Source: Pyrinomonadaceae bacterium (GTDB lineage: Bacteria; Acidobacteriota; Blastocatellia; Pyrinomonadales; Pyrinomonadaceae). Taken from it: a stretch of DNA of 15,898 nt. Made by a program: the position numbers and the translations under genes. The notes under the pieces were generated by a model. That model searched no databases, was not told the origin of the DNA, and saw only the letters and a program-made list of their open reading frames with translations. The stretch covers positions 1 through 15,898 of the forward strand of contig DASQNL010000652.1 in the NCBI GenBank assembly GCA_035644995.1, given 5' to 3'. Of this stretch, positions 119 to 14,704 are shown piece by piece (the stretch's first letter is position 1; each line of letters opens with the position of its first letter).

Positions 119-238
119 TCCTCTACTCCTGATTCGCATAATCTATTGCAACTCATGCTTTCGCGTCCGGCATTAAGCCGAGATACGGAGTCGTTATGAC
201 AAACCGTGACACCCTGGAATGCTGTGCGGAGGCCTTAG

Positions 239-877
239 ATGGGGTTCCTGAACGCCCTTAAATTACGTAACCGGAGCGAAGCGGCGGAAGATGAATCCGG
301 TAAACCGTCCCTCGTCTCTGTACACAGTGCCCGACAACATTATGAGGCGGGCATGGCGCTGGCCGGGCAGGGCTTATACCGGGAAGCGATAGAAGCGTTT
401 CAACAGGCGACTTTGAAACAGCCGCACGACGCCAAGTTACATTACCATCAAGGCCGAATGTATGACATGCTCGGCCGGGTAGATAAGGCGCTGGTATGTT
501 ACGAGCAAGCCGTCCGGTTGAAGGCCGACTATATAGAGGCCTGTAACGATTTAGGGGTCGTCTACAGCAAACTCGGGCGCAATGTTGAGGCGATAACACT
601 ATTTCACAAGACGCTGCGACAGAGTCCCGGCTATGTAGAGGCGCTCAATAATCTAGGGGTTGCATATTACAATTGGGGCAGTTACGCCGAGGCCATTAAA
701 GCCTGCCGCAAGGCCATTCAGATTAACCGGGCTTATCCAAATTCCTATTATTTACTGGGTCTCATCTATATTGATCTGAAGGATAAAGAGATGGCTCTCG
801 AAGCTCAGCGAACGCTTCAGGAACTTGACCCCGAAACGTCGCGTCAATTATTGGAGCAGATTTACAAACAATTCTAG
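239..877 (+). CDS. Tetratricopeptide (TPR) repeat protein, 212 aa
   Basis: GGAGG (228-232) lies 6 nt before the ATG. The translation shows several tandem ~34-aa TPR-like units, e.g. AIEAFQQATLKQPHDAKLHYHQGRMY, ALVCYEQAVRLKADYIEACNDLGVVY, AITLFHKTLRQSPGYVEALNNLGVAY, AIKACRKAIQINRAYPNSYYLLGLIY. G+C is lower than in the fad region. Confidence 0.85.
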   Translation: MGFLNALKLRNRSEAAEDESGKPSLVSVHSARQHYEAGMALAGQGLYREAIEAFQQATLKQPHDAKLHYHQGRMYDMLGRVDKALVCYEQAVRLKADYIEACNDLGVVYSKLGRNVEAITLFHKTLRQSPGYVEALNNLGVAYYNWGSYAEAIKACRKAIQINRAYPNSYYLLGLIYIDLKDKEMALEAQRTLQELDPETSRQLLEQIYKQF

Positions 878-896
878 CCCCTGACATCAAGTTTGA

Positions 897-1431
897 AGCG
901 CAGTCAGCCTCCCGTTGGCCGACGCCGGCGCGCGCCTCGACCTCAGGCGGACGCTCTCCGAGCATGCGCTTGCCGGCGAGCCGTCCGCGGCTATCGTAAG
1001 CTCCGTAGCGCTCACGTCGCCGCTTGCGCGCGCCGCGCAGGTGGAGGTGGAGCGTCCCGCCCTGTCGCTTGTCACGCCAGACGTGGCGGTAGATCGTCTC
1101 GTGGCTGATTGAAAGCCGCCCCAGGCGGGCGAGGCGGGCGGCGACTTGCTCAGGACTCCACAGCCGACAGAGCAGTTCGTCCATCGGCGCGAAGTCCTCC
1201 GCCGAGAAACGGCTGTCGCGGCGTGAGCGTGCGCGGCGGCCGTTCGTCCTTTCCTGTGCCGTAGTGGCGCGGTAGCAGCCGTCAGTCCGGGTGCTGTTGC
1301 GGCTGAGTTCACGGCAGATGGTGGAGCGGTGGCGACCGGGCGCGCGTGCGATCTGTGATTGGTTGTAGCCTTGCCTTACTGAGCGCGGCGAGCATATCTC
1401 TCTCCTCGGGGGAGAGCCGGCGGTACGTCAT
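897..1431 (-). pseudogene. IS30-family transposase remnant, N-terminal part only, frameshifted and 3'-truncated
   Basis: The minus-strand ATG at 1431 reads MTYRRLSPEERDMLAALSK and then terminates. After a 1-nt frame change near 1375-1385 the reading continues as QGYNQSQIARAPGRHRSTICRELSRNS...WSPEQVAARL...ISHETIYRHVW...ERPPEVEARAGVGQREAD. These are the HTH and linker motifs typical of IS30 transposases. No DDE catalytic core follows. Similarity and high G+C stop at about 897, only ~20 bp from the TPR stop codon. The left boundary is approximate. Confidence 0.75.
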
Positions 1432-1731
1432 GACATAAGACCTCTTCGTGTTGGTTGGAGTCTTAGTCAGTATTGCGGCTCACCTCCACTTGAGGGAAGC
1501 CTGTTGCACTTAGTATATGAATCCGCGAGTGATAACTCACCCTTCGGCATCGTTTGGCAGAGAGAGCGCGCCGAAGACGCGTTCGAGGTCAGACCGCCTC
1601 ATTTTGTTTGTCGCAGGTGACCAAGTCATGCTTCTTTTCATCCCTGGGGGTTGTGAACGTATCGCATTTAAACGCTGATAACTCCCGCCACTCCTGCTCA
1701 AGAACCGATGGAAACTGTTTCAAAGTGTCAG

Positions 1732-1860
1732 TTCGTGCATAAAGTGCGAATTCCCGCCACCAACTATCAACAACTTACAGTAATAATTCGCTCATAAAGC
1801 GAGAAATTATTCGTGCATAAAGTGCGAAAATGCATTACTTTTCGTGCATAAAGTGAGAAT
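1732..1860 (+). repeat. Cluster of four 20-bp direct repeats, consensus TTCGTGCATAAAGTGCGAAW, upstream of the SWIM gene
   Basis: Copies: 1732-1751 TTCGTGCATAAAGTGCGAAT, 1787-1806 TTCGCTCATAAAGCGAGAAA, 1810-1829 TTCGTGCATAAAGTGCGAAA, 1841-1860 TTCGTGCATAAAGTGAGAAT. All are in the same orientation. Each has a TTCG...CGAA/AGAA outer dyad. Confidence 0.8.
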
Positions 1861-1910
1861 TAGCCGGGAAGTAAACAAAATAGAAATTTGTGGTTCCCTG
1901 TAGAGGTTGC

Positions 1911-2909
1911 ATGGCTGAGGGAAAGTTGCCCCGGCTGACCGAGGCGCACATACGTAATCTTGCCGTTGCGCCGAGCTTCGAGCGCGGCCAAGCCTACTAT
2001 CGTGACGGAGCAGTTCTAGACCCTATCTGCCAAGAGTCCAGCCTGCGCGCCCAGTGTGAAGGCTCAGACTATGAGCCGTATCAGGTCAGTGCGACGCTCG
2101 GCAAAGGCGGCATCGCAGAAACTTCCTGCACCTGTCCTTATGACTATGGCGGCATCTGCAAGCACATCGTCGCCCTGCTGCTGACATACATACACAAACC
2201 ACAGTCATTCCGTTTCATACCGCCACTCGGCAAGTTGCTCGCCAGGCGCAGCCAAGAGGAACTCATCACCCTCATCGGCGAGATGATCAAGATAGAGCCA
2301 GAATTGCTGTCGCTGGTCGAACTCTCTATCGCAACCGAAGAAGCCCGGCAAGACCAGCCGTTGGATGTGACAGCGTATCGCCGTCAGGCGCGGCGGGCGC
2401 TGCGACACGAGCACCTGCACATGGTAGAGAAAGAATTGCGAGCGTTACGAGAACTGGCCGCCCGTTCGGCTAAGGCTGACAACTGGCTGAACGCAGGCGC
2501 GATCTATCACGCGGTTCTCGACGAGACGGTTCGCGGCTACGAAGACCTATTGTGGGAGATGGATGAGGACGGCGAGATCGCCGTCCTGATTGACGAGTTC
2601 GCGCTGGGGTTGAGCCAGTCTCTCAAGAAAAGTAAGGCCGACGACCAGACGCGCCGGGCGTGGCTGGGGGCGCTCTTGGAGGCTGAACTGGCCGACATCA
2701 AAATGGGCGGAATTGACCTCGCGCCGAGCGCCCGCGAGGCGGTTTTAGAACACGCCGATGATGAGGAGTGGGGGTGGATTGAGAAGCGTCTCGAAACTGC
2801 TATCTCGAAGTGCCGCGACTGGGGACGGGAAGCGCTGGTGAGGTTTTTATCTGCGGGGCAGAAGCGGCACGGGCGCGCAGGTGAAAGCAAAACAGCCCGA
2901 AAGAGATGA
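1911..2909 (+). CDS. SWIM zinc-finger domain protein
   Basis: The CxCx(n)CxH SWIM signature is in TSCTCPYDYGGICKHIVALLL. The rest is helical and acidic. I prefer the ATG at 1911 (GAGG 1903-1906 upstream) to the GTG at 1890 listed in the ORF track. Confidence 0.8.
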   Translation: MAEGKLPRLTEAHIRNLAVAPSFERGQAYYRDGAVLDPICQESSLRAQCEGSDYEPYQVSATLGKGGIAETSCTCPYDYGGICKHIVALLLTYIHKPQSFRFIPPLGKLLARRSQEELITLIGEMIKIEPELLSLVELSIATEEARQDQPLDVTAYRRQARRALRHEHLHMVEKELRALRELAARSAKADNWLNAGAIYHAVLDETVRGYEDLLWEMDEDGEIAVLIDEFALGLSQSLKKSKADDQTRRAWLGALLEAELADIKMGGIDLAPSAREAVLEHADDEEWGWIEKRLETAISKCRDWGREALVRFLSAGQKRHGRAGESKTARKR

Positions 2910-2961
2910 TCAAGCAGGAAGCAAACCGCATCACGGAACGGACACAACAGGCAGAGATGAA

Positions 2962-3477
2962 ATGGAACAGAACGACCGACAGGAAACGCTAAAGGCAGCC
3001 CTTCATTATTTTTATCGGGATAACTCAAGGTCTGGCTCACATTGCCGCTACAGCCTGCAATATCACCTCGTCTGGATTCCGAAATACCGCCGAAGTTTCT
3101 TGGTTGGTGAGATAGCCGAGAGGCTGAAACAGATACTCAAAGAGATTGCCCATGATTATCGTATTCACATTATCGCCATGGAGGCGATGCCCGTCCACGT
3201 TCATATGCTGGTTGAAGCACCGCCCAAATATGCGCCTGCAAAGATCGTTCAACTTTTCAAAGGCATCTCGTCGAGGAGGCTCAGGCGGGAATTTCTCGAC
3301 CTGATAAAGAGGTACATCTGGAAAGAAGGAACTCTGTGGGCAATCGGCTACTACATCGGCAGCGTGAGCGATAAAGTCTCAACGGAACTTGTAAAGAAAT
3401 ACATCAGGAATCAGAAGTCGAAAGATGAAAAACTGAAACAACAAACAGAATATGTTCAGGCAAGCCTTTTCGGTTAA
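2962..3477 (+). CDS. tnpA: IS200/IS605-family Y1 (HUH) transposase TnpA
   Basis: Hallmark motifs are present: YSLQYHLVWIPKYRR, the HUH motif in PVHVHMLVEAPPKY, and a C-terminal helix with the catalytic Tyr region LWAIGYYIGSVSDKVSTELVKKYIRNQ. I placed the start at the first ATG (2962). The GTG at 2881 in the track would overlap the SWIM gene and has no SD. Confidence 0.85.
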   Translation: MEQNDRQETLKAALHYFYRDNSRSGSHCRYSLQYHLVWIPKYRRSFLVGEIAERLKQILKEIAHDYRIHIIAMEAMPVHVHMLVEAPPKYAPAKIVQLFKGISSRRLRREFLDLIKRYIWKEGTLWAIGYYIGSVSDKVSTELVKKYIRNQKSKDEKLKQQTEYVQASLFG

Positions 3478-3516
3478 GGCGTGTGTCAACATCCATTTAA
3501 GGCGTTATGTTTGCGC

Positions 3517-3545
3517 TTGCTGAATGAATGCTCATTCAGTATGAT
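3517..3545 (+). promoter_or_regulatory. Candidate sigma70-type promoter of the fad operon with a palindromic operator in the spacer
   Basis: TTGCTG (3517-3522), a 17-nt spacer, then TATGAT (3540-3545). The spacer holds the perfect dyad CTGAATGA-ATGC-TCATTCAG (3520-3539). The site is 45 nt upstream of the fadN ATG, with RBS GGAGAAAGG at 3571-3579. The dyad could instead be a tnpA terminator or an IS200 end hairpin. Confidence 0.4.
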
Positions 3546-3589
3546 ATGTGGCCTCTCGCACGAGACTTTTGGAGAAAGGTTCTTCCCCT

Positions 3590-6001
3590 ATGCTTCGGAT
3601 CGAACGAGCGGCGGTGCTGGGCGCGGGTACGATGGGCGCGCAGATCGCCGCGCACCTGGCGAACGCCGGAATTCCCGTCCTCTTGCTGGACATCGCGCCG
3701 CGCGAACTCACGCCCGATGAACAGGCCAAAGGCTTGACCCTCGACGCGCGCGCCGTGCGCAACCGCATCGCGCAGGCCGGACTCGACGCGGCGAAGCGCG
3801 CGAAGCCCGCCGCCTTCTTCACCACGGACGCGGCTGCGCTCGTCGCGGTCGGGAATTTTGAAGACGACATGGCGCGTCTGAAAGATTGCGATCTGGTCAT
3901 CGAAGCGGTCGTCGAGAATCTGGAGATCAAGCGAAAGCTCTACGCGCAGGTTGAGCAGCACCGGCGCGCTTCGTCGGTCATCGCGTCGAACACGAGCGGC
4001 ATCCCCATCCGCGCCATCGCCGAAGGGTTCTCGGAAGACTTTCGCGCGCACTTCCTCGGCATACACTTCTTCAATCCGCCGCGCTACCTCCACTTGTGCG
4101 AACTGATCCCGACCGAATGGACGCGCGCGGAGGTGGCCTGCGCCGTCTTCGGCTTCCTCGATCAAAGACTCGGCAAGGGCGTCGTCATTGCGAAGGATCG
4201 CCCGAACTTCATCGCCAACCGCATCGGCACTTACGGCGCGCTCGTCTCGATCAAGACGATGCTCGAAGACGGCTACACCATCGAAGAAGTTGACCGGATG
4301 ACGGGGCAGGCCGTCGGTCGCCCGAAGTCGGCCACCTTCCGCACGTTCGACATCGTCGGCCTTGACGTGTTCGCGCACGTCGCGCGTAATCTCTACGAGG
4401 CCGTACCCGAAGACGAGGAGCGCGAGGTGTTCGTCGCGCCGGAATTTTTGCAAGGGATGATCGGGCGCGGCATCCTCGGCAACAAGACGAAAGGCGGCTT
4501 CTACCGCAAGCAAAAAGGCGAGGGCGAGAAACAGGAAATCTGGACGCTCGACCACGCCTCGCTCGAATATCGCCCCGCCGAGAAAGTTAAACTGCCCGCG
4601 CTGGAGATGGCGAAAAACGTGGAAGACGTGGGCGAGCGCATCAAGGCTCTCGTCTGGTCGCGGGATCGCGTCGGCGCGTTTTTGTGGAAGACCATCTCAC
4701 GCACTCTGCGCTACGCGGCGAACCGCATCCCGGAGATCGCGAACAACGTGGTGGACGTTGACCGCGCGATGCGCTGGGGCTTCAACTGGGAACTCGGCGT
4801 CTTCGAGACGTGGGACGCCATCGGTGTTGAGAAGTCGGTCGCGCGCATGCGCGAGGAAGGCGCGGCCGTTCCCGCGAACGTGGAGCGAATGCTTGAGGCG
4901 GGCGCGCATAGTTTTTACCGGACGGAGGGGGGCGCGCGTTTCTATTTCGATTTCGATAAACTCGACTACCAGCCGTTGAACGAACCGGCGGGCGTGCTCG
5001 TCTTGAAGTCGGTTAAGGATCGCACGGGCGTGGTGAAGAAGAACGCGGGCGCGTCTTTGATCGACATCGGCGACGGCGTGGCGTGTCTGGAATTTCATTC
5101 CAAGATGAACGCCATCGGCGGCGATACGATCCAGATGCTCAAGTGGTCGCTCGCCGAAGTGGAGCGAAACTTCGTCGGCTTAGTGGTCGGCAATCAGGCG
5201 CAGTATTTCTCGGTCGGCGCGAACCTGATGCTCATCCTTTTGGAAGCGCAGGAGGAGAACTGGGAAGACATCGATTTGATGGTGCGCGAGTTTCAACGCG
5301 CGACGATGAGTTTGCGCTATTCGTCGAAGCCGGTCGTCGTCGCGCCGTTCGGCCTCGTGCCCGGCGGCGGCTGCGAGGTGACGATTCACGGCGACCGCAT
5401 CCGCGCTTCGGCCGAGTTGTACATCGGTCTGGTCGAGGCGGGCGTCGGCGTCATCCCGGCGGGCGGCGGGACGAAGGAGATGCTCATGCGCGCGCTCGAT
5501 TCGATCCCGAAGGGGATGGACGACGCAGACCCGTTCCCGTTCGTCAAACGCGCCTTCGAGACGATTGCGCTGGCGCGTGTCGCCACGTCGGCCGGAGAGG
5601 CGCGGCAGTTGGGCTTCCTGCGCGACGAGGATTCCGTCACGATGAACCCGGATCGTCTCATCGCCGACGCCAAACAGGACGTGCTCGCGCTCGCGCGCGG
5701 CGGCTACACCGAACCGCAGCCGCGCACGGACATCCTCGCGCTCGGAAACCCCGCGCTCGCCACTCTGAAACTCGGCATCCACCAGATGAAACGCGGCGGC
5801 TTCATCTCCGACTACGACGCGCACATCGGCGAACGGCTCGCGCGCATCCTGACGGGCGGCGATCTCAACCACCCGACGCGCGTCAGCGAACAATACCTGC
5901 TCGACCTCGAACGCGAGGCGTTCCTCTCGCTCTGCGGCCAACGCAAGACGCAGGAGCGCATGGCGGCCATGCTCAAGACCGGCAAGCCGCTCAGGAATTA
6001 G
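3590..6001 (+). CDS. fadN: Bifunctional 3-hydroxyacyl-CoA dehydrogenase / enoyl-CoA hydratase (FadN-type, dehydrogenase domain first)
   Basis: The N-terminus carries a Rossmann motif, AAVLGAGTMGAQIAAHLANAGIPVLLLDI. The 3HCDH core is VIEAVVENLEIKRKLY...SNTSGIPI...HFFNPPRYLHLCELIP. The C-terminal half has a crotonase fold (LEFHSKMNAIGGD...VVAPFGLVPGGGCEV...GLVEAGVGVIPAGGGT). I took the start at ATG 3590 behind the GGAGAAAGG RBS rather than 3548. Confidence 0.93.
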   Translation: MLRIERAAVLGAGTMGAQIAAHLANAGIPVLLLDIAPRELTPDEQAKGLTLDARAVRNRIAQAGLDAAKRAKPAAFFTTDAAALVAVGNFEDDMARLKDCDLVIEAVVENLEIKRKLYAQVEQHRRASSVIASNTSGIPIRAIAEGFSEDFRAHFLGIHFFNPPRYLHLCELIPTEWTRAEVACAVFGFLDQRLGKGVVIAKDRPNFIANRIGTYGALVSIKTMLEDGYTIEEVDRMTGQAVGRPKSATFRTFDIVGLDVFAHVARNLYEAVPEDEEREVFVAPEFLQGMIGRGILGNKTKGGFYRKQKGEGEKQEIWTLDHASLEYRPAEKVKLPALEMAKNVEDVGERIKALVWSRDRVGAFLWKTISRTLRYAANRIPEIANNVVDVDRAMRWGFNWELGVFETWDAIGVEKSVARMREEGAAVPANVERMLEAGAHSFYRTEGGARFYFDFDKLDYQPLNEPAGVLVLKSVKDRTGVVKKNAGASLIDIGDGVACLEFHSKMNAIGGDTIQMLKWSLAEVERNFVGLVVGNQAQYFSVGANLMLILLEAQEENWEDIDLMVREFQRATMSLRYSSKPVVVAPFGLVPGGGCEVTIHGDRIRASAELYIGLVEAGVGVIPAGGGTKEMLMRALDSIPKGMDDADPFPFVKRAFETIALARVATSAGEARQLGFLRDEDSVTMNPDRLIADAKQDVLALARGGYTEPQPRTDILALGNPALATLKLGIHQMKRGGFISDYDAHIGERLARILTGGDLNHPTRVSEQYLLDLEREAFLSLCGQRKTQERMAAMLKTGKPLRN

Positions 6002-6082
6002 TTTCAGGTTTCAGGTTTCAGGTTTCAGGACTGACGGGTTCTTCCTGCTGTAACCTGAAACTTGAAACTCGAAACTTGAAAC
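6001..6082 (+). repeat. Heptamer-array hairpin element, copy 1: (GTTTCAG)x4, 26-nt loop, CTGAAAC TTGAAAC TCGAAAC TTGAAAC
   Basis: Read directly: left array 6001-6028 (four perfect units), loop 6029-6054 (GACTGACGGGTTCTTCCTGCTGTAAC), right array 6055-6082. The first G of the element is the G of the fadN TAG stop codon. Confidence 0.9.
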
Positions 6083-6087
6083 CCGCT

Positions 6088-6561
6088 ATGGATTACCCTG
6101 TGACGCCCGCCGTGAGGTTGCTGCGGGAGCGCAAAATAGAGTTTGAGCCGCACCTCTACGCTTACGAGGAGCGCGGCGGCACGCGCCACTCGGCCGCCGC
6201 GCTCGGCGTGGACGAGCACGCGGTCGTCAAGACGCTCGTGATGGAGACGGAGGCGCGCAAACCGCTCATCGTCCTGATGCACGGCGACCGCGAAGTCTCG
6301 ACGAAGAACCTGGCGCGCGTCATAGGCGCAAAGAGCGTGCAGCCGTGCGACCCGGCAAAGGCGCAGAAGCACACGGGCTACCTCGTCGGCGGCACAAGCC
6401 CCCTGGGGACGCGCACACGGCTGCCCGTCTACGTCGAGCGCACGATCTTCGCGTTGCCGAAGATTTACCTCAACGGCGGCAAGCGCGGCTTTCTCGTCGG
6501 GATTGAGCCGAACGTTTTGCATGAGTTATTGTCAGCCGAAGAAGTTGAAGTAGCCATCTAG
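6088..6561 (+). CDS. ybaK: Cys-tRNA(Pro)/Cys-tRNA(Cys) deacylase, YbaK/EbsC family, 157 aa
   Basis: The translation MDYPVTPAVRLLRERKIEFEPHLYAYEE...AVVKTLVME...LIVLMHGDREVSTKNLAR...HTGYLVGGTSPLG...PVYVERTIFALPKIYLNGGKRGFLVGIEP matches the YbaK family layout. The listed ORF from 5083 is read-through of the fadN 3' end in another frame. Confidence 0.87.
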   Translation: MDYPVTPAVRLLRERKIEFEPHLYAYEERGGTRHSAAALGVDEHAVVKTLVMETEARKPLIVLMHGDREVSTKNLARVIGAKSVQPCDPAKAQKHTGYLVGGTSPLGTRTRLPVYVERTIFALPKIYLNGGKRGFLVGIEPNVLHELLSAEEVEVAI

Positions 6562-6577
6562 GGACGCGAGGTGCGAG

Positions 6578-6835
6578 ATGCAGAATATTTACAAGCGCCC
6601 GCTGGTATTAGAACCGCAACCGGAAGGCGGCTACACGATTACCTGCCCGCTTTTGCCTGAATTGATTACCGAGGCTGACACGTTGGATGAGGTGATGACA
6701 AACGTCTCGGATGCTCTGGCGGCGGTAATCGAATCTTATGTAGACACGAAGCAGCCTTTGCCGGAGATTCTCAAACCGTTGAATCCCAACTCGCCGTTGT
6801 GGACGGAGACGCTCGTGTCTGTGAAAGCGGCATGA
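6578..6835 (+). CDS. hicB: HicB-family antitoxin (UPF0150-type, no obvious DNA-binding domain), 85 aa
   Basis: EPQPEGGYTITCPLLPELITEADTLDEVMTNVSDALAAVIESY is the typical HicB/UPF0150 RNase H-like fold signature. GAGGTG RBS lies upstream. Its TGA overlaps the ATG of the next gene (ATGA). Confidence 0.8.
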   Translation: MQNIYKRPLVLEPQPEGGYTITCPLLPELITEADTLDEVMTNVSDALAAVIESYVDTKQPLPEILKPLNPNSPLWTETLVSVKAA

Positions 6836-7044
6836 ACTACAGGGAAGTGGCGGCGAAACTGCGTGCGCTCGGTTGCGTAGAGATTCCGCGCCGGAGCGGC
6901 GGGTCACACCGGAAATGGCACAACCCGCGGAAGCAAAAGATCGCGCCCGTGCCGGATTGGGGTAACAAAAGCCTGAAACTCGGAACCATCCGCGCTATCG
7001 TGCGGCAACCGGATTTAGATTGGGAGGCATTCAAAAATGCCTGA
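6832..7044 (+). CDS. hicA: HicA-family mRNA interferase toxin, 70 aa
   Basis: The translation MNYREVAAKLRALGCVEIPRRSGGSHRKWHNP...PVPDWGNKSLKLGTIRAIVRQ carries the HicA GSH motif and dsRBD-like layout. I placed the start at ATG 6832, overlapping the hicB stop by 4 nt, not at 6799. Confidence 0.85.
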   Translation: MNYREVAAKLRALGCVEIPRRSGGSHRKWHNPRKQKIAPVPDWGNKSLKLGTIRAIVRQPDLDWEAFKNA

Positions 7045-7082
7045 GCAGATAGTTTGAGGAAGTTTTACCGGAAGGAAGAATT

Positions 7083-8267
7083 ATGAGAGACGCAGTGATC
7101 GTATCGGCGGTGAGGACGGCGGTGGGGAAAGCGCCGAAGGGGACTTTGCGCGACACGCGGCCGGACGAGATGGGCGCGGCCGTGATTCAGGAAGCGTTGC
7201 GGCGCGCCGAGGGCGTCGAGTTGAACGAGGTCGAAGACGTGATCATGGGCTGCGCGATGCCGGAGGCGGAGCAGGGCATGAACGTGGCGCGGGCGGCGGC
7301 GATTCGCGCGGGGCTGCCGGTGGAAACTTCGGCGATGACGATCAACCGCTTCTGCTCGTCGGGGCTGCAATCAATCGCGATTGCGGCCGACCGCATCAGA
7401 ACCGGCGCGGCCGACGTGATCGTGGCAGGGGGCTTGGAGACGATGTCGCTCATCCCGATGGGCGGCCACACCATCAGGCCGAACCCTTACCTCGTCGAAC
7501 ACTACCCGGACTTTTATCTGAACATGGGACTCGCCACCGAGAACGTCGCGCGCAAGTATGAAGTGTCGCGCGCGGAGCAGGACGAGTTCTCCTATCAGTC
7601 GCACAGCCGCGCGGCGGCGGCGCAGGACGCGGGCAAGTTCGACGACGAGATCGTGCCGCTCAAAATCGTGTTTGAAGAGTTGGACGAGCGCGGGCGTAAA
7701 CAGCGGCGCGAGGCGACGTTCGAGCGCGACGAGGGCGTGAGGCGCGACACTTCGGCGGAGAGCCTGTCGAAGTTGCGGCCGGCGTTTCACGCGCAGGGGA
7801 CGATCACGGCGGGCAACGCGTCGCAGATGTCGGACGGGGCGGCGGCCGTGGTCGTGATGTCCGGCGAGCGAGCGCGCGCTTTGGGCTTGAGGCTGATGGC
7901 GCGCTTCGTGGCCTACGCCACCGCCGGATGCCCGCCCGAAGAGATGGGCATCGGGCCGGTCTACGCGATTCCGAAGGTCTTGAAGATCGCGGGGCTGACG
8001 CAAGATCAAATCGACGTGATCGAACTCAACGAAGCCTTCGCCGCGCAATCGCTCGCCGTCATCCGCACGCTCTCGCTCGACCCGGAAAAAGTGAACGTCA
8101 ACGGCGGAGCCATCGCGCTCGGCCACCCGCTCGGCTGCACGGGCGCGAAGCTGACCGCGACCGCCCTGCGCGAACTCGCACGCCGCGGCGGCCGCTACGC
8201 GATGGTGACGATGTGCGTCGGCGGCGGCATGGGCGCGGCGGGCATTTTCGAGAGGCTCGAAAATTAG
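7083..8267 (+). CDS. fadA: Acetyl-CoA C-acyltransferase (3-ketoacyl-CoA thiolase), 394 aa
   Basis: The N-terminus [20 protein letters not shown] is classic. The active-site Cys region is [13 protein letters not shown]-terminal motifs are [25 protein letters not shown] and [17 protein letters not shown] is GGAAGGAAG. Confidence 0.95.
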
Positions 8268-8347
8268 TTTCAGGTTTCGAGTTTCAAGTTTCAGGACTGA
8301 GGTTCCGAGGCTTTCAAACTTGAAACTTGAAACCTGAAACTTGAAAC
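8267..8347 (+). repeat. Heptamer-array hairpin element, copy 2: GTTTCAG GTTTCGA GTTTCAA GTTTCAG, 25-nt loop, TTGAAAC TTGAAAC CTGAAAC TTGAAAC
   Basis: Read directly: left array 8267-8294, loop 8295-8319 (GACTGAGGTTCCGAGGCTTTCAAAC), right array 8320-8347. The first G is the G of the fadA TAG stop codon. Confidence 0.9.
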
Positions 8348-8373
8348 TTTATTCCGACTTAAAGGAGCAAATT

Positions 8374-10152
8374 ATGTCAGCCGTGGTCGAAGAGAAAAAG
8401 ATAATCGCGGGCGGCAGCTTCCTCATCGAGGAGCGCACGCCGGAAGAGGTGTTCACGCCGGAGGATTTCACGGACGAGCACCGCATGATCGCGGAGACGA
8501 CGCGCGAGTTCATGGACAATGAAGTGCGCCCGGCGACGGACGAGTTGGAGCGGCACAACTGGCAACTCGCGCGCGAGTTGATCCGCAAGTCGGCGGAGTT
8601 GGGGATGGTCGGCGTCAACATTCCCGAAGAATACGGCGGCCTCGGACTCGACCAGACGAGCGGCGCGATTGTCGGCGAACTGCTCGGACGCTCGGCCAGT
8701 TTTGCGACGACGCTCGGCGCGCAGAGCGGCATCGGCCTGACGCCCATCCTCTACTTCGGCACGGAAGCGGCGAAGCAAAAGTACTTGCCGCGCATCGCTT
8801 CGGGCGAGATGGTGTCGGCTTACGCGTTGACGGAAGCCGGGTCGGGTTCGGACGCGATGGCGGCCAAAGCCACGGCGCGCCTCAGCGCGGACGGCACGCA
8901 CTACATCTTGAACGGCGAGAAGATGTGGATCACGAACGGCGGCTTCGCCGACGTGTTCATCGTCTTCGCCAAGCTCGACGGCGACAAGTTCAGCGGCTTC
9001 ATCGTCGAACGGCAGGAAGGACTGACGAACGGCGCGGACGAGCACAAGATGGGCATCAAAGGATCGAGCACGACCGCGCTCATCCTGTCGGATGCGAAAA
9101 CGCCGGTGGAGAACCTGCTTGGCGAGGAAGGACGCGGCGCGAAGATCGCGTTCAATATTTTGAACATCGGCCGCTTCAAGCTGGGCGCGATGTGTAGCGG
9201 CGGGATGAAGTTGATGCTGCACGAGGCGGTGCGCTACGCGAACGAGCGGCAACAGTTCGGCCGCCCGATCTCTTCGTTCGGCGCGATCAAGTCGAAGCTG
9301 GCGGAGATGGCGATCAGGACGTGGGTGGGCGAGTCGATGGTCTACCGGACGCTCGGCCTCATCGAAACGGCGACGAGCGGCGAGACGGAGGCGGAGGCCA
9401 AACTGCGCGGCATCGAGGAGTATGCGGCGGAGTGTTCGATCATCAAGGTCGCGCTCTCCGAGTATTGCGATTTCGTCGCCGACGAGATGGTGCAGATTTA
9501 CGGCGGCTACGGCTACTCGGCCGACTATCCGGCCGAGCGCGCCTACCGCGACTCGCGCATCAACCGCATCTTCGAGGGCACGAACGAGATCAATCGCATG
9601 TTGATTCCCGGTCGCATGATGAAAAGCGCAATGTCGGGGCGGCTCGCGCTCCTGCCCGCCGCGCAGAAGTTGATGGACGAAGTGTTGTCGCCGTCGCTCG
9701 CGTCGTTTGAAGAGGACGAGGGCGTGCTCGCCGCCGAGATGAAACTCGCGCGGAACGCGAAGAAGGTCGCGCTGATGACTCTGGGCACGGCGGCGCAGAA
9801 GTACATGGCGAAACTCGCCGACGAGCAGGAGATTCTGATGGGCGTGGCGGACATCACGATGGACGTGTACGCGATGGAATCGGCCATCCTGCGCGCGCAG
9901 AAACTCGCGGCGAAGCGGGGCGAAACGGCCGCCGCGCGTTACATCGAGATGGTGCAGGTCTTCTGCAACGACGCCGTGCAACGCATCGAAGCGCGCGCCA
10001 AGAACACGCTCGCCGCCATGAGCGAAGGCGACGAACTGCGGACGCTCCTCGCCGCCCTGCGCCGCTTCACCAAGCAGACCCCGGTCAACACGGTCGCCGC
10101 CCGTCAGGCGATAGCCGACGTGCTGATCAAGGCGAACAAGTACGCCTACTGA
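8374..10152 (+). CDS. fadE: Acyl-CoA dehydrogenase, long form with C-terminal extension (FadE-type), ~592 aa
   Basis: ACAD N-terminal, middle and C-terminal domains are recognisable (YALTEAGSGSDA, MWITNGGFADVFIVFAK, QFGRPISSFGAIKSKLAEM, QIYGGYGYSADYPAERAYRDSRINRIFEGTNEINR). I took the start at ATG 8374 behind AAAGGAG (8361-8367). The TTG at 8341 lies inside the heptamer array. Confidence 0.93.
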   Translation: MSAVVEEKKIIAGGSFLIEERTPEEVFTPEDFTDEHRMIAETTREFMDNEVRPATDELERHNWQLARELIRKSAELGMVGVNIPEEYGGLGLDQTSGAIVGELLGRSASFATTLGAQSGIGLTPILYFGTEAAKQKYLPRIASGEMVSAYALTEAGSGSDAMAAKATARLSADGTHYILNGEKMWITNGGFADVFIVFAKLDGDKFSGFIVERQEGLTNGADEHKMGIKGSSTTALILSDAKTPVENLLGEEGRGAKIAFNILNIGRFKLGAMCSGGMKLMLHEAVRYANERQQFGRPISSFGAIKSKLAEMAIRTWVGESMVYRTLGLIETATSGETEAEAKLRGIEEYAAECSIIKVALSEYCDFVADEMVQIYGGYGYSADYPAERAYRDSRINRIFEGTNEINRMLIPGRMMKSAMSGRLALLPAAQKLMDEVLSPSLASFEEDEGVLAAEMKLARNAKKVALMTLGTAAQKYMAKLADEQEILMGVADITMDVYAMESAILRAQKLAAKRGETAAARYIEMVQVFCNDAVQRIEARAKNTLAAMSEGDELRTLLAALRRFTKQTPVNTVAARQAIADVLIKANKYAY

Positions 10153-10156
10153 AAAG

Positions 10157-10191
10157 CGGAAGACAGGAGACAGAAAACAGGAGTCAGAATG
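10157..10191 (+). repeat. Left heptamer array flanking the four-helix-bundle gene: CGGAAGA CAGGAGA CAGAAAA CAGGAGT CAGAATG
   Basis: Period-7 pattern read directly. The fourth unit provides the AGGAG Shine-Dalgarno and the fifth unit contains the ATG (10189). Confidence 0.8.
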
Positions 10192-10557
10192 GAACGTTTG
10201 CCTGCGCGTACTTTTCAAGACTTGATCGTGTGGCAGAAAGCGCACGAGTTTGTTTTGGGGGCGTACCACCTGAGTAAAAACTTTCCGCGAGAAGAGCTTT
10301 ATGGCCTGACTTCGCAATTCAGGCGTGCCGCCGTTTCGATACCGGCGAATATCGCGGAGGGTTTCAAGAAGAAAGGCTCTAGTGATAAGGCGCGGTTCAT
10401 GAACATCGCACAAGGCTCTTTAGAAGAATGTCGCTATTACCTGATCCTGACAAACGATCTTGGCTACGGCGATACAAGACAACACATGCAGCAACTTGAA
10501 GAGGTCAGCAAACTTCTCGCGAGTTACATCTCCGCGATTAAAACTTCTGACTTCTGA
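10189..10557 (+). CDS. Four-helix-bundle protein (23S rRNA intervening-sequence protein family; Avd-like), 122 aa
   Basis: Strong family signature: FQDLIVWQKAHEFVLGAYHLSKNFPREELYGLTSQFRRAAVSIPANIAEGFKKK...FMNIAQGSLEECRYYLILTNDLGY. G+C is lower than in the neighbours. Confidence 0.9.
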   Translation: MERLPARTFQDLIVWQKAHEFVLGAYHLSKNFPREELYGLTSQFRRAAVSIPANIAEGFKKKGSSDKARFMNIAQGSLEECRYYLILTNDLGYGDTRQHMQQLEEVSKLLASYISAIKTSDF

Positions 10558-10577
10558 CTTCTGTATCCTGTATTCGC
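10543..10577 (+). repeat. Right heptamer array flanking the four-helix-bundle gene: ACTTCTG ACTTCTG ACTTCTG TATCCTG TATTCGC
   Basis: Read directly. Its reverse complement (GCGAATA CAGGATA CAGAAGT CAGAAGT CAGAAGT) is an imperfect match to the left array. It encodes the last codons (T S D F stop) of the four-helix-bundle gene and ends 1 nt before the MBL ATG. Confidence 0.8.
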
Positions 10578-10578
10578 C

Positions 10579-11544
10579 ATGCGCATCATCCCCATCTCGC
10601 TGCCGACGCCGTTTTACATCGGGCCGGTCAACGTCTACTTGATCGCGGAAGACCCGGTGACATTGATTGACACGGGGCCGAAGACGCCGGAAGCGTTAGA
10701 GGCTCTGCGCGAGGGGTTGAGGCGGGCGCGCTTTCGCGTCTTAGACGTAAAGCGCATCGTCCTGACGCACGCCCACGAGGATCATTGCGGGCTGGCGAAA
10801 CGCCTGCGCGACGAGGCGAAGGATGCGGAAGTGCTCGTCCACGGGTGGGAGACGGGGCATCGCCAGGGGCGTCTCGAATATGAGGAGCACCGCGCGCTGC
10901 TGGTGCGCGCCGGGGTGCCGGGCGAAGAAATCGAGGGGATGCGGCGCATGTATGAGGGCGTGCGCCGGTATGCGGACGCGCTCGAAGACGAGGAACACAA
11001 GGAACTGACGGACAACTCGGAGTTGGAGTTTGAGACCGGCGCGCTGCGCGTGGTGCATACGCCGGGACACACGCCGGGGTCGTGCTCGTTCGTGCGCGAG
11101 GCCGACCGGACGATCATCGCCGGCGACTGCGTGTTGAAACGCGTGACGCCGAACCCGGTGCTCTCGCCCGACCCGGTAGACCCTTCGCGCAGATTTCCGT
11201 CGCTCGCCGAATACCTCGTGAGCCTGGCGCGTTTGCGCGCGTTCGCGCCGACGCTCGTTCACGGCGGGCACGGCGAGGCGGTGGAGGATTTCGAGGAGTT
11301 GTTCACGCGCTACCTGCGGGCGATCCGGGAGCGGCAAGCGGAGGTGGCGCGCCTCGTGCCGAAAACGGGCGCGAGCGCGTGGGAGGTGGCGCGCGAGATG
11401 TTTCCGGGAACGGAGGACGTGCATCGCTTCCTCGCCGTGTCGGAGGTGGTGGCGCATCTCGATCTGGCGCACGCGGAGAATAAACTCGCGTTGGAGATGA
11501 CGGCCGACGGGCGGGAGATTTATCGTAAGTCGGCGGGCGGCTGA
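10579..11544 (+). CDS. MBL-fold metallo-hydrolase, 321 aa
   Basis: The HxHxDH motif is in LTHAHEDHCG. Downstream are VHTPGHTPGS and a GD motif. The N-terminus GPVNVYLI...TLIDTG is typical of beta-lactamase-fold hydrolases. No clear SD, so the start is somewhat uncertain. Confidence 0.85.
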   Translation: MRIIPISLPTPFYIGPVNVYLIAEDPVTLIDTGPKTPEALEALREGLRRARFRVLDVKRIVLTHAHEDHCGLAKRLRDEAKDAEVLVHGWETGHRQGRLEYEEHRALLVRAGVPGEEIEGMRRMYEGVRRYADALEDEEHKELTDNSELEFETGALRVVHTPGHTPGSCSFVREADRTIIAGDCVLKRVTPNPVLSPDPVDPSRRFPSLAEYLVSLARLRAFAPTLVHGGHGEAVEDFEELFTRYLRAIRERQAEVARLVPKTGASAWEVAREMFPGTEDVHRFLAVSEVVAHLDLAHAENKLALEMTADGREIYRKSAGG

Positions 11545-11613
11545 AGAGTGTGCGCGGGCGCGCGATGCCGCCGCAGGCTCAGATCGAAGCGGCGCAAACG
11601 CGAGTTGAAATTA

Positions 11614-11658
11614 AACCGGCCGCCGTTCGTCAGGTTGAATGACGGACGGCGGCCGGTT
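11614..11658. terminator. Bidirectional intrinsic-terminator-like hairpin between convergent genes
   Basis: AACCGGCCGCCGTTCGTCA (11614-11632), 7-nt loop GGTTGAA, then TGACGGACGGCGGCCGGTT (11640-11658). This is a 19-bp stem with one T/G position. On the minus strand it is followed by TTTAATTTC. On the plus strand it is followed by CGGTTT, a weaker U-tract. Confidence 0.6.
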
Positions 11659-11729
11659 CGGTTTAGCGGAAAAGCCCTGCGGCGTTCCGGCGGATGAGAA
11701 TGCGGGCGGGCGTTAGCGCGCCGCCGCGT

Positions 11730-13664
11730 CTATTGGTTGCCCTTGGCAACGCGGCTTTTGCTGCGCGTCGCCTGAGCCTTGGTGGCGCTGACGGGCGGAG
11801 CCGGAACCGCCGTCAGGGCTTCGACGTTGACGAAGAAGCGGAACGAGCCGTTCTGTTCCACGCCAAGCAGGAACTGCAAGTTGACGCTCGCGCCCGCCGG
11901 AAGCTGATTAGCCAGCGTGACGGTACCGGCCGAGAGCGTGGAGTTGAAGCCGCCGCCGTTCGGTTGGCCGAGCGCGTCCGTTTCAAGCGTGGTGCCCTGG
12001 ATAGTGGTCTGCGGGCTGGCGTTGTCGGAGCAGAGGTGCGGCGTGCCGTTCTCACTCTGGCAGGTCGCAGTGATAGACGAAGAAGTGATCGCCCGCAGGT
12101 CGGCCGTGCCCAACAGCGAGGGGAAGGTGGTGATGTCCACGATGCGGAAGCGCAGGCGGGTCACGCTCGCGCCCGTGTTGTTGGTGAAGCGGCGGCGGAT
12201 CGAGAGCGTGCCCGTCGAAGTGGGAGACGAGCCGAAGCCCGAACCCGCATTCGTGCGACGCTCGAAGCGGCACGCGCTCGGCAGCGCCGGGTTGACGGCG
12301 ATGCCGGTGCATTGCGTGTCCACGAGCGACGCCTTGATCTCGGCGTTGCGCTGCGTGGGCGACGAGAGATTTTCGGGGCCGGGCGCGCCGAGCCGCTGGC
12401 ACCGGAAGTTAATCGTCGAGCTGCACAAGTTCGTGCCGTTGATGTCGGCGGTCTGGAAGTCCGTCTCGTTGTTATTGGTGTCGAGCGGCATGCCGCTCTG
12501 CGCGTTGCGGAAGAGGCTGAAGTTGACGCCGGGGTTCCCACTCAGGACAGCCGAGAACGGGGGGTAGCCCGTGCCTTCGACGTAAATGGGGTTGGTCTCG
12601 GCGGTCGAGCCGACGGCGTCGAGGCGGTTGGCGAGCGTGAAACTCGCCTGAACCGACGTGTTGAAAATGGCGATCCCGGCGTTCGCGGGGATGTTCTCGT
12701 TCAGGGTGTTGTCGCCCGTGGCCGTCGTGCCGTTGCCCGCCGGGTACGCGCTGCCGCTGAAAGAGCCGGTGCATGCGCCGCCGCCGTTATTGACGGCGAG
12801 ATAGTGGCCGCGCGCCGGGATGTTCGTGCCGTTCGGGATAGTGAACAACACGTTGCCGTTCGAGTGCGCGACGGCAAAGCCGGTCGTGCCGGCTTCGAGC
12901 GACTGCACCGTGAATGTGCTGTTCGACGGGTTGTAAATCTCGACGAACTCGTCGCACGTGCCGGTCGGCCCGAAGGTGCGGAACTCGCTGATCAGAAGCA
13001 TCGTTCCGGTGAGCGAATTGCGCGGGGTCGGAGCGGCGGCGGTGAAATCCAGATTGTTGTTATCGGTGTCCACGCTGCCGCCGCCGTTACGAATATCGGC
13101 GGTGGTGGTCGAGGGGGCGGGCGCGGGGCCTGCCCCTTCAAAGCAGTTGGCGGTCGAGCCGTAGCCGACGAAGTCTCTGACCTGTGAGGGAGTGGCCGGG
13201 CAGCCGGCCGCCGTCAGCGTGACCGGGGTGGTGGTGTTGGCGAGAAAAACTTTGCCCGCCGTCGCGCTCATGGCTATCGTGCCGGTCGTGTTCGGCGTCG
13301 GGAGCGCGAGCGTGCCGTTCGCGCTGAATGACTCGGCGACCAGATAATACTGTCCCGGTTGGAGCGTGAAGTTCGTCAGCGGTGTGATCGCGCTCGCGGC
13401 GTTGGCGATTGTCGTGCCCGTGGCGGAGCTGTATTGCACCGAGAGGCCGTTCAGCGAAACGGGGGTCGTGCCCCGGTTGTAGATTTCGATGAAGTCGTTT
13501 TTGTAAGTGGAGCAGTTGGCCGTGCCGCACCCCGCCCCGCCGTAAATCTGGCTGATGACGAGATCGGGGCTGCCCTGTGCATAGGCAACTTGCGAAGCCG
13601 AGAACGCGAAGCCCAGCGCGAGCGTCGCGAGAGCAAAAGTATAGAATCTACGAAGGGGTTGCAT
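11730..13664 (-). CDS. Secreted protein with two lamin-tail-domain (LTD) modules and an uncharacterised C-terminal domain, 644 aa
   Basis: A signal peptide ends ..ASQVAYAQG. LTD 1 (LVISQIYGGAGCG...YKNDFIEIYNRGTTPVSLNGLSVQYSSATG...DFVGYGSTANCFEGAGPAP...DTDNNNLDF) resembles the N-terminal module of ExeM/NucH-type extracellular nucleases. LTD 2 reads LLISEFRTFGP...DEFVEIYNPSN...DTNNNETDF. AGGAGA RBS is on the minus strand (13672-13679). Confidence 0.85.
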   Translation of the reverse strand: MQPLRRFYTFALATLALGFAFSASQVAYAQGSPDLVISQIYGGAGCGTANCSTYKNDFIEIYNRGTTPVSLNGLSVQYSSATGTTIANAASAITPLTNFTLQPGQYYLVAESFSANGTLALPTPNTTGTIAMSATAGKVFLANTTTPVTLTAAGCPATPSQVRDFVGYGSTANCFEGAGPAPAPSTTTADIRNGGGSVDTDNNNLDFTAAAPTPRNSLTGTMLLISEFRTFGPTGTCDEFVEIYNPSNSTFTVQSLEAGTTGFAVAHSNGNVLFTIPNGTNIPARGHYLAVNNGGGACTGSFSGSAYPAGNGTTATGDNTLNENIPANAGIAIFNTSVQASFTLANRLDAVGSTAETNPIYVEGTGYPPFSAVLSGNPGVNFSLFRNAQSGMPLDTNNNETDFQTADINGTNLCSSTINFRCQRLGAPGPENLSSPTQRNAEIKASLVDTQCTGIAVNPALPSACRFERRTNAGSGFGSSPTSTGTLSIRRRFTNNTGASVTRLRFRIVDITTFPSLLGTADLRAITSSSITATCQSENGTPHLCSDNASPQTTIQGTTLETDALGQPNGGGFNSTLSAGTVTLANQLPAGASVNLQFLLGVEQNGSFRFFVNVEALTAVPAPPVSATKAQATRSKSRVAKGNQ

Positions 13665-14029
13665 TGAAACAATTCTCCTGAGAAAGTTTGGCAGTTGAAA
13701 TGGAAAGTTGCCTAAGAGCAGCTTGTGGCCTGGTTCGTCGTTTGTGTTCGCGCGTGGGCGGGAGTCGTTTAACTAACGCCTTGTGATTCGGATCGCTGCT
13801 TAAATAAAATTCGGTGGAAACGAATTTCCATAGGCGTTGCGAGAATAAGACAGACGGCCGCGCGCGGTCAACTCTAACGCCCCGTGTTTCTGTTAAATCT
13901 TTTACCCGAACCCACCGCCCGCGCACGCCGCCGTCGCCTCAGCGCGTTTCGCCGCCTGCTGAAACTTTTTGCTCCCGCCTTCCATCTACCATACCAGTAA
14001 GAACGCGCACGCGCGGGCGGCGCGGCCGA

Positions 14030-14575
14030 TCACTTGACGACTTCAAACTCGAAGTAGATGGTCTTGCCGCGAATCACGTAGCAGAGGTAAGTCTCCCAAA
14101 AGCGGCGGAGGAAGCGCAAGGACGGGTAGCGGTTGGAGAGGTTGACGAGAAATTCTATGCCGAGCGCGCGCCAGAGTTTGAGGAGCGTGACGCGGACGAC
14201 GCGGGGGCGCAAAGTGACATCGCTGTAGAAGGCGAAGTCGGGGCGTTTGCCCGTGAAGTAGGCGAAGGATTCGGTCGTCAGGTGATGCCGGTGCGTGGGG
14301 TCTGTGTAGGAGGCGATGTCGGAGTAGTGGGGCGTGTCGAGGCGGATGAGGCCGCCGGGCTTCGTGATGCGGTGCAACTCCGCGACGACGGCCAGCACGT
14401 CGTCGATGTGTTCGATGACCTGATTGCCGACGATCACGTCGAACTCGTTATCGGGAAAAGGATAGGGCACGGCGTCGAGGTCGTGAATCACGTCGGCGTG
14501 CGTTTTCGGGTTGCTGTCGAGGCCGATGCTGCCGGGCGTCTTCTTGATGCCGCAGCCGATGTCGAGAATTTTCAT
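14030..14575 (-). CDS. Class I SAM-dependent methyltransferase, 181 aa
   Basis: Motif I is MKILDIGCG, followed by FDVIVGNQVIEHIDD and LHRITKPGGLI. I chose the ATG at 14575. The track start at 14782 would add a low-complexity extension overlapping the divergent PDZ gene. No clear SD, so the start confidence is moderate. Confidence 0.78.
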   Translation of the reverse strand: MKILDIGCGIKKTPGSIGLDSNPKTHADVIHDLDAVPYPFPDNEFDVIVGNQVIEHIDDVLAVVAELHRITKPGGLIRLDTPHYSDIASYTDPTHRHHLTTESFAYFTGKRPDFAFYSDVTLRPRVVRVTLLKLWRALGIEFLVNLSNRYPSLRFLRRFWETYLCYVIRGKTIYFEFEVVK

Positions 14576-14704
14576 CGCGGAGAAATTAACCCAAGTGCGC
14601 GTGCCCGCGCAAAATACGGGCGCGTTCGCGCGGCGCAAAATTTTCGGAACCACGCGGCCTGCGCCTCGTGAAATTGCCAGAAATCTCTCTCGGAGGATTG
14701 ATTT

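Follow-up and report, generated by a model that had tools for sequence, protein, structure and literature searches.

The window, 15,898 nucleotides of contig DASQNL010000652.1 from a Pyrinomonadaceae bacterium (assembly GCA_035644995.1, positions 1 to 15,898), contains a fad operon in which two intercistronic spacers are occupied by hairpins whose arms are tandem arrays of a GTTTCAG-type heptamer. The second of these, copy 2, lies between a thiolase gene and fadE, an acyl-CoA dehydrogenase (ACAD) gene, and is the element considered here. The operon is organized on the plus strand in the order fadB-like, YbaK-type deacylase, HicB, HicA, thiolase, acyl-CoA dehydrogenase, 23S_rRNA_IVP (IVP), and metallo-beta-lactamase-fold (MBL), and the thiolase and 592-aa acyl-CoA dehydrogenase on either side of copy 2 are the genes that a preliminary description of the sequence had placed there. 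The same DNA makes up the beginning of a 17.7-kb metagenome contig (ENA ERZ27286116 k141_696522), and close homologues of the thiolase (86 to 98% identity) are all named Pyrinomonadaceae or Acidobacteriota. The features that bear on the hairpins and on the IVP gene are as follows.

3590-6001, plus strand: gene for a fadB-like bifunctional enzyme, upstream of copy 1
6001-6082, plus strand: copy 1, (GTTTCAG)x4, a 26-nt loop GACTGACGGGTTC...GTAAC, and four YYGAAAC units
7083-8267, plus strand: thiolase gene, upstream of copy 2
8266-8349, plus strand: entire predicted stem-loop of copy 2, with a main stem of ~30 bp and one mismatch
8267-8294, plus strand: 5' arm of copy 2, GTTTCAG (8267-8273), GTTTCGA (8274-8280), GTTTCAA (8281-8287), and GTTTCAG (8288-8294)
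8295-8319, plus strand: loop of copy 2, 25 nt, GACTGAGGTTCCGAGGCTTTCAAAC, with the family loop motif GACTGA...AAC
8320-8347, plus strand: 3' arm of copy 2, TTGAAAC (8320-8326), TTGAAAC (8327-8333), CTGAAAC (8334-8340), and TTGAAAC (8341-8347)
8362-8376, plus strand: Shine-Dalgarno sequence AAGGAG (8362-8367) and ATG (8374) of the acyl-CoA dehydrogenase gene, 14 to 26 nt past the copy 2 stem
8374-10152, plus strand: acyl-CoA dehydrogenase gene (592 aa), downstream of copy 2
10156-10189, plus strand: 5' arm of the IVP element, GACAGGA, GACAGAA, AACAGGA, and GTCAGAA up to the ATG, with a GGAG Shine-Dalgarno sequence inside
10189-10557, plus strand: 23S_rRNA_IVP / four-helix-bundle (S23p) open reading frame (ORF), 122 aa, in the 'loop' of a heptamer-array stem
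10545-10577, plus strand: 3' arm of the IVP element, ACTTCTG three times and then TATCCTG, beginning within the last codons of the ORF

The units and layout of copy 2 are read from the letters of the window, as is the TTTATT (8348-8353) that stands directly 3' of its right arm, and the same arrays are reported by Tandem Repeats Finder (TRF) and by an inverted-repeat finder. The architecture given in the preliminary description, four units, a 25-nt loop, and four inverted units, matches the letters exactly, and so does the likeness that it drew to copy 1, which has the layout of copy 2 and a loop that opens with GACTGACGGGTTC and closes with AAC. The hairpin abuts the thiolase gene so closely that the G of the stop codon TAG (8265-8267) doubles as the first base of unit 1. 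Copy 1 fills the gap from the fadB-like stop codon (5999-6001) to the ybaK-like start (6088), with 5 nt and no Shine-Dalgarno sequence between its end and the ATG. The two-unit pattern GTTTCARGTTTCAR, with up to one mismatch, has 14 matches in the window where 0.02 would be expected, none of them outside the two hairpins. As a 106-nt plus-strand RNA (8255-8360), copy 2 folds with a dG of -43.8 kcal/mol, compared with -22 ± 3.5 kcal/mol for its dinucleotide shuffles (z = -6.3), none of 200 of which is as good. The two hairpins recur without a single base difference in an independent Joint Genome Institute (JGI) metagenome assembly (L002) and are therefore not assembly artefacts.

Dispersal and turnover of the hairpins

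The GTTTCAG family, as defined here, consists of at least three GTTTCAR units, a loop, and at least three YYGAAAC units, 5' to 3' in that order. Copy 2 has this arm order, a loop that starts as G(A/T)CTGA and ends as TTTAAC or AAC, and further copies at unlinked sites. The 5' end of the loop reads G[A/T]CT[G/C]A in all 17 GTTTCAG-type hairpins of Pyrinomonadaceae and related Acidobacteriota (alignment A5), most of these 17 GC-rich hairpin loops close with ..TCTTTAAC, and the 12-mer TTTCAGGACTGA is found in 12 of the loci sampled. Behind the 17 hairpins are about nine unlinked genomic sites with the loop motif GGACTGA...TTTAAC, in at least eight genomes; the copies lie in the fadB-to-ybaK, thiolase-to-ACAD, and MFS-DoxX spacers and at loci L016, L018, L024, L045, L075, L112, and L121. 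Copies 1 and 2 are members of one dispersed, clade-specific palindromic element family, because the loop similarity recurs in other copies. The preliminary description had held that they belong to a single element family and are not separate simple repeats, and had named non-recurrence of the loop similarity among aligned copies as the outcome that would refute it; the alignment and the unlinked sites bear this view out. The loop motif is specific to part of the heptamer's range, a GACTGA-type sequence being missing from 15 of 15 low-GC hairpins with a GTTTCAG heptamer, mostly from Flavobacterium.

The same spacers can be followed through seven syntenic relatives (L203, L204/L205, L206, L207, L208, L209, and L210), whose genes are 80 to 95% identical to those of the window at the DNA level. 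Their contents are as follows.

Thiolase-to-ACAD spacer, window, L203, L206, and L209: GTTTCAG hairpin with a GACTGAGGTTC loop
Thiolase-to-ACAD spacer, L204 and outgroup L208: (TRAGCAG)4-loop-(CTGCTYA)4 hairpin
Thiolase-to-ACAD spacer, L207: GTCCCAA hairpin in which one GTTTCAG unit is retained
Thiolase-to-ACAD spacer, L210: empty, 15 nt, TAA + GAAAGGATCAAACTT + ATG
ACAD-to-MBL spacer, window and L203: IVP ORF within GACAGRA arms
ACAD-to-MBL spacer, L204, L209, and L210: ORF-less GAAAGGG hairpin
ACAD-to-MBL spacer, L206: TRAGCAG hairpin
ACAD-to-MBL spacer, L208: CAGAGGT hairpin
ACAD-to-MBL spacer, L207: 220 nt, non-heptamer

Every hairpin variant in these spacers folds (-30 to -68 kcal/mol, 25 to 43 bp), the sequence flanking the hairpins on either side is conserved among the relatives, and the segment with the Shine-Dalgarno sequence and ATG of the acyl-CoA dehydrogenase gene is kept whichever hairpin precedes it. 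Between L204 and L208, whose flanking genes are 80% identical, the TRAGCAG hairpins differ by one compensatory change of A-U to G-C. Similar turnover is seen in the spacers downstream of fadB and between the MFS and DoxX genes. Structure and position thus persist while the sequence is exchanged, and forms with and without an ORF can replace each other at one site; the empty spacer of L210 shows that the hairpin is dispensable.

Two further observations concern the hairpin downstream of fadB. In L209 (8881-9000), its left arm and loop start are duplicated, such that (GTTTCGA)3 GTTTCAG GACTGAAAGTA is followed by a complete hairpin, a tandem duplication that shows how these elements grow. The segment from copy 1 to the thiolase gene (6088-7044) differs by genome, with ybaK and hicBA in the window and L209, ybaK, hicB, and a decayed hicA in L203, ybaK and an unknown 168-aa ORF in L204, DUF4345 and ybaK in L206, ybaK alone in L207 and L210, and nothing in L208; as these small accessory genes vary beside a hairpin, the fad operon is a hot spot for them.

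Heptamer-array hairpins extend well beyond this clade and this heptamer. A genome scan for three GTTTCAR units, with one genome per species, returns at least 120 stretches (loci L003-L122), and the matches listed are mainly from Flavobacterium, Pyrinomonadaceae, other Acidobacteriota, Bacteroidales, and Desulfobacterales. The scanned loci hold at least 547 period-7 arrays, at least 117 inverted pairs, and at least 55 short-loop hairpins built from ~30 different heptamers. Among the matches listed, the arm order is 5'-(GTTTCAR)n...(YYGAAAC)n-3' in 30 cases and reversed in 3, and all three reversed cases sit in a single Desulfonema magnum locus. Across heptamer families the arms show a chirality bias, with CAG in the 5' arm for eight and CTG for one, and the IVP arms behave likewise. 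The hairpins usually begin 0 to 10 nt past a stop codon and finish 1 to 20 nt ahead of the next start; of 46 with classifiable placement, 34 lie between co-directional, 5 between convergent, and 7 between divergent genes, which is roughly what random intergenic location would give. One Pyrinomonadaceae metagenome-assembled genome (L084, 7468-7610) has an AATCGTG/ATTCACG hairpin nested in the loop of an AGTGACA/ACTCGTC heptamer hairpin, which suggests that the loops themselves are insertion targets. In Acidobacteriota, heptamer-array hairpins form cassettes that are exchanged at fixed positions between cistrons, similar hairpins occur in Bacteroidota, and no description of hairpins with tandem-heptamer arms as exchangeable intercistronic elements was found in the literature searched.

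Period-7 arrays around IVP genes

The IVP element lies 1.8 kb downstream of copy 2 in the same operon, and its ORF has clear matches to Pfam PF05635 (E = 6.5e-37), TIGR02436 (E = 7e-35), and PDB 2GSC (E = 2.5e-19). In the minimum-free-energy fold of 10150-10585, the segment 10156-10189 pairs with 10545-10577, forming 29 bp over the GGAG Shine-Dalgarno sequence and the AUG, and the stop codon TGA (10555-10557) falls inside the 3' heptamer array. Copy 2 is an ORF-less form of this architecture, which elsewhere encloses a 23S_rRNA_IVP (S23p) gene.

As a rule, IVP family genes are enclosed by inverted period-7 arrays. This is seen in 80 metagenomic loci (L123-L202) with relatives of the window IVP at 56 to 76% identity, picked by protein similarity alone, where 49 of 75 IVP genes have an array at one end or at both by a strict lag-7 test, compared with 2 of 90 neighboring control genes upstream and 6 of 90 downstream. 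Other periods are absent (5 and 6) or scarce (three cases of 8 and two of 9) at the IVP gene ends. By TRF, 55 of 78 loci have an array upstream, 64 have one downstream, and 51 have arrays at both ends; array density is 6.5 per kb at IVP gene ends and 0.35 per kb elsewhere, an 18-fold enrichment, and in 37 loci the two arrays are recognizably complementary. The arm units follow the consensus RARNCAG and are CAG-terminal in 99 of 134 cases, so that the upstream arm brings Shine-Dalgarno sequences resembling GGAG; CTCC and TGA stand in the downstream arm, where the array itself encodes the last codons and the stop of the ORF.

The two types of element also meet in Bacteroidota, where an IVP ORF lies between arrays of GTTTCAG type (L004) and two GTTTCAG-type hairpins flank an IVP ORF (L080). 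IVP genes are known to be scattered within cas operons (PMC3936711), which fits promiscuous insertion. Recent mobility of the window's IVP copy was considered and rejected, since a protein identical to it is found in the same genomic context only. The loops of ORF-less hairpins were also considered as remnants of a deleted IVP ORF and rejected, as by eye they are without an ATG and do not resemble IVP gene ends. That the 3' arm has a stop in every frame was likewise rejected as a general rule, because it holds for CTGAAAC and for the IVP arms but not for the TRAGCAG or GAAAGGG families. A general link between IVP genes and heptamers is not described in the literature searched, in which PMC4990558 alone notes heptamers beside one such ORF.

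Proposed processing, mobility, and alternative readings of copy 2

Copy 2 is very probably a dispersed palindromic element like the intervening sequences (IVS) of 23S rRNA. A fuller reading, in which this IVS-like, ORF-less element is processed by RNase III and tolerated as a selfish or neutral insertion and is not a dedicated regulator of fadE, is moderately probable. Copy 2 is very likely transcribed, because it lies within a run of same-strand genes with short spacers, and it would share a transcript with the thiolase gene and the acyl-CoA dehydrogenase gene. RNase III needs roughly 20 to 22 bp of double-stranded RNA, a length exceeded by the near-perfect ~30-bp stem. The stem could then be cut in the manner of the Coxiella IVS and its heptamer stem, which would divide the operon transcript between the thiolase and acyl-CoA dehydrogenase cistrons and leave the thiolase message with part of the stem at its 3' end. 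Taken by itself, cleavage of the copy 2 stem by RNase III is a tentative proposal, somewhat short of probable. The element would persist mainly as a tolerated insertion, selfish or neutral.

Several observations weigh against this interpretation. Cleavage is an analogy drawn from one experimental system and from stem length. Within the GTTTCAG family, where 94% of cells are paired, no measure of covariation rises above the shuffle control; the arms are simply conserved, and support for the structure therefore rests on replacement between families and on the one compensatory change. The sense strand of the two window copies is the more stable by 4 to 8 kcal/mol on 106-nt constructs and by 7 to 12 kcal/mol on trimmed arrays, an advantage that is not general, because 34 hairpins between co-directional genes show no overall G-U asymmetry in favor of the sense strand, which folds more stably in 12 of them, compared with 15 for the antisense strand. 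Relative to transcription the loop motif is found either way round (about five sense and three antisense), and some hairpins lie between divergent genes, such that the orientation, strand, and divergent-gene data require no RNA-level role. As to mobility, no transposase is linked to the hairpins, and no direct repeat of at least 9 nt that would mark a target-site duplication rises above the permutation control (6.19 versus 5.98 ± 0.09). A miniature inverted-repeat transposable element, a cut-and-paste derivative, would have terminal inverted repeats together with a target-site duplication; here inverted repeats are present, and the fuzzy array ends obscure any duplications of 2 to 4 nt. What looked like an 11-nt repeat at L207 (GACTCCAATAA / GACTTTAATAA) failed to generalize. 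The heptamers of the IVP arms (RARNCAG) mostly differ from those of ORF-less hairpins, of which only one occurs in 248 kb of IVP-locus flanks, and for these reasons a parent-derivative relation of the two forms stays hypothetical.

A more far-reaching proposal is that IVP genes with their arrays and the ORF-less hairpins are autonomous and non-autonomous forms of one unrecognized class of selfish element, in which a stem that RNase III renders removable or harmless in the RNA would permit insertion into any transcribed spacer or into rRNA helices, and a pentameric, Avd-like IVP protein would bind, propagate, or homogenize the 7-nt arrays. This is doubtful; if it is true, the 23S rRNA intervening sequences are a special case that was noticed first.

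Among the alternatives, the one put forward in the preliminary description was that copy 2 with its TTTATT is a partial attenuator before fadE, that is, an intrinsic terminator that stops some transcripts ahead of the acyl-CoA dehydrogenase gene. The great stability of the hairpin and the position of the T-run speak for this, as do the 5 of 17 GC-rich hairpins with at least six T among the 10 sense-side nucleotides that follow, but orthologous hairpins do not conserve the T-run (L209 has TGTATT, L206 has TTGTTT, and L204 has none), and copy 1 and most family members are without one. Mean T after the stem is 3.8 on the sense side and 3.8 on the antisense side of the 34 hairpins between co-directional genes, a terminator scan reports nothing at copy 2, heptamer hairpins also occur between divergent genes, and L210 has the same gene order with only 15 nt in the spacer. 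The dimensions are also atypical, with a ~30-bp stem that is A-U rich at its base and a 25-nt loop, compared with a G+C-rich stem of ~5 to 14 bp and a loop of 3 to 8 nt in a typical terminator. Attenuation at copy 2 is thus very unlikely, and an RNA-processing or selfish element is more likely than a terminator. The hairpin could instead couple or occlude translation, with the terminating ribosome melting the stem base and exposing the downstream initiation region, as the start of the stem at the stop codon, the next ATG 1 to 20 nt past the 3' arm in many family members, the short gap without a Shine-Dalgarno sequence at copy 1, and the predicted fold of the IVP element, whose stem covers its own Shine-Dalgarno sequence and AUG, would allow. 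At copy 2, however, the Shine-Dalgarno sequence and ATG are 14 to 26 nt outside the stem, the empty-site relative L210 keeps that Shine-Dalgarno sequence directly after the stop codon, and hairpins are present in divergent and convergent spacers too, leaving this account highly improbable.

Two other explanations are each unlikely. Copy 2 could be a stabilizer like repetitive extragenic palindromic (REP) sequences or bacterial interspersed mosaic elements (BIME), with an uncut stem that blocks 3'-to-5' exonucleases and protects the thiolase message and with copies spread by a REP-associated tyrosine transposase (RAYT). The hairpins are REP-like in being intergenic, palindromic, and multi-copy, in lying directly after stop codons in operons, and in having no target-site duplications, and the window does contain a Y1 transposase gene (2962-3477). 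This transposase nonetheless scores 146 bits with the IS200/IS605 model and 39 bits with the RAYT model, below the cut-off of 80; it is not flanked by heptamer hairpins and is missing from syntenic relatives that carry them, and ~30 heptamer families are hard to square with a single transposase of defined sequence specificity. In length, a perfect 30-bp stem qualifies as an RNase III substrate, unlike the short stems of REP sequences. Alternatively, the hairpins could be a mutational by-product with neither function nor mobility, in which slippage in A+T-richer spacers grows the arrays and template switching keeps the arms complementary. Unit number and unit variants do vary among close relatives, the arm and loop start are tandemly duplicated in L209, the GTTTCAG unit within the GTCCCAA array of L207 resembles a change in place, and the lack of covariation above shuffles, the lack of an orientation preference, and the viable empty site of L210 are all in keeping with this. 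Slippage probably contributes to the variation in unit number and to the L209 arm duplication. Against it as a full explanation, a loop motif of 6 to 12 nt is common to hairpins at unlinked sites in different genomes, and whole-element copying, not local slippage, is therefore needed; moreover, the TRAGCAG family occupies two different spacers (L204/L208 versus L206), arrays are concentrated 18-fold at the ends of one gene family, and the period is strictly 7.

The window also has other repeats and palindromes. The Y1 transposase ORF, of the IS200/IS605 family, and a SWIM-domain ORF (1911-2909) lie just upstream of the fadB-like gene and are a recent insertion, because the pair is missing from all syntenic relatives L203-L210. 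Directly upstream of this pair, at 1732-1861, the 21-nt motif TTCGTGCATAAAGTGCGAATT is present four times; each copy is a small imperfect palindrome, and the four may be end structures of that insertion sequence. The interval from the transposase ORF to the fadB-like gene includes a perfect small palindrome, CTGAATGA-ATGC-TCATTCAG (3520-3539). An inverted repeat at the contig start (39-126), ahead of a TPR-repeat gene, has 21-nt arms (GTAGAGACGGCAGATGAGCAA / TTGCTCATCTGCCTCCTCTAC) 46 nt apart. A G+C-rich palindrome with 19-nt arms (AACCGGCCGCCGTTCGTCA / TGACGGACGGCGGCCGGTT) at 11614-11658, between the convergent metallo-beta-lactamase-fold and LTD-domain genes, looks like an ordinary bidirectional terminator, unlike the heptamer hairpins.

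Comparison with known systems

Extragenic palindromes, heptamer repeats (short tandemly repeated repetitive [STRR] sequences; TAACTGA repeats, PMC4679880), and IVS elements are each already known. The hairpins described here offer a handle on two old questions, the nature of IVS elements and their ORFs and the abundance of heptamer repeats in some phyla, and they touch on the 23S_rRNA_IVP / four-helix-bundle family, which is widespread and to date functionless. There is also a practical side, in that heptamer hairpins are easily taken for terminators and their arrays extend into the final codons and the stops of genes.

With Rho-independent terminators copy 2 shares a stable stem-loop just past a stop codon, followed by TTTATT, but it is without the short G+C-rich stem or a conserved U-tract and lies inside an operon. 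An integron attC site was considered and rejected, as the core order is opposite (GTTTCAR 5' and YTGAAAC 3', where attC has RYYYAAC 5' and GTTRRRY 3') and the units are unlike the cores; a domain search finds no integrase domain in the window. Rfam yields only sub-threshold microRNA hairpin models (at most 30.5 bits, with thresholds of 51 to 102). REP sequences, BIME, and the REP-doublet hairpins termed REPIN of Enterobacteria and Pseudomonas are likewise short multi-copy extragenic palindromes that occur in either orientation without target-site duplications and are co-transcribed at gene 3' ends within operons; the arms here differ in being tandem heptamers and much longer, in belonging to many sequence families, and in having no conserved GTAG-type head. 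The Correia elements, or Neisseria miniature insertion sequences (NEMIS), are dispersed intergenic elements of Neisseria with long inverted repeats; these fold in the mRNA, where RNase III cleaves them and so alters transcript stability. The terminal inverted repeats of Correia elements are fixed, their targets have TA duplications, and they are not known to contain tandem heptamers; no duplication of at least 9 nt is seen here.

Tandem heptamers as such are known from the STRR sequences of heterocystous cyanobacteria and from the TAACTGA repeats of Beggiatoaceae, Cyanobacteria, and Bacteroidetes (MacGregor 2015, PMC4679880), and arrays of the TAACTGA type have been proposed as single-stranded protein-binding sites (PMC4679880). 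These too are intergenic 7-nt arrays that often abut start or stop codons, with Bacteroidota in common and a patchy distribution that suggests horizontal spread. They are direct repeats, however, with one inverted set among 170 in the BOGUAY genome, whereas the inverted pairs here form hairpins.

The 23S rRNA IVS with S23p ORFs, as in Coxiella and Leptospira, differ from copy 2 in location and content. Copy 2 is in an mRNA intercistronic spacer between protein-coding genes and not in helix 25 or 45 of 23S rRNA, there is no rRNA match in the window, its 25-nt loop holds no ORF, an S23p ORF being present only at 10156-10577, and its heptamer is GTTTCAR and not RARNCAG. In the IVS of Coxiella burnetii, AGAAGA and tandem GACAGAT/GACAGAA heptamers, the latter in numbers that differ between strains, stand before an S23p ORF of the same Pfam family as the window IVP, and the terminal stem is 28 bp and is cut by RNase III at the first repeat, both in vitro and by rapid amplification of cDNA ends (PMC4990558). 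The likeness to the fad operon lies in a stem of ~28 to 30 bp formed by tandem-heptamer inverted repeats, GACAGAT in Coxiella and GACAGRA around the window IVP ORF. Terminal inverted repeats that form a stem of at least ~20 bp characterize these elements, and copy 2 has such a stem, of ~30 bp; among close relatives hairpins with and without an IVP ORF alternate in one and the same spacer.

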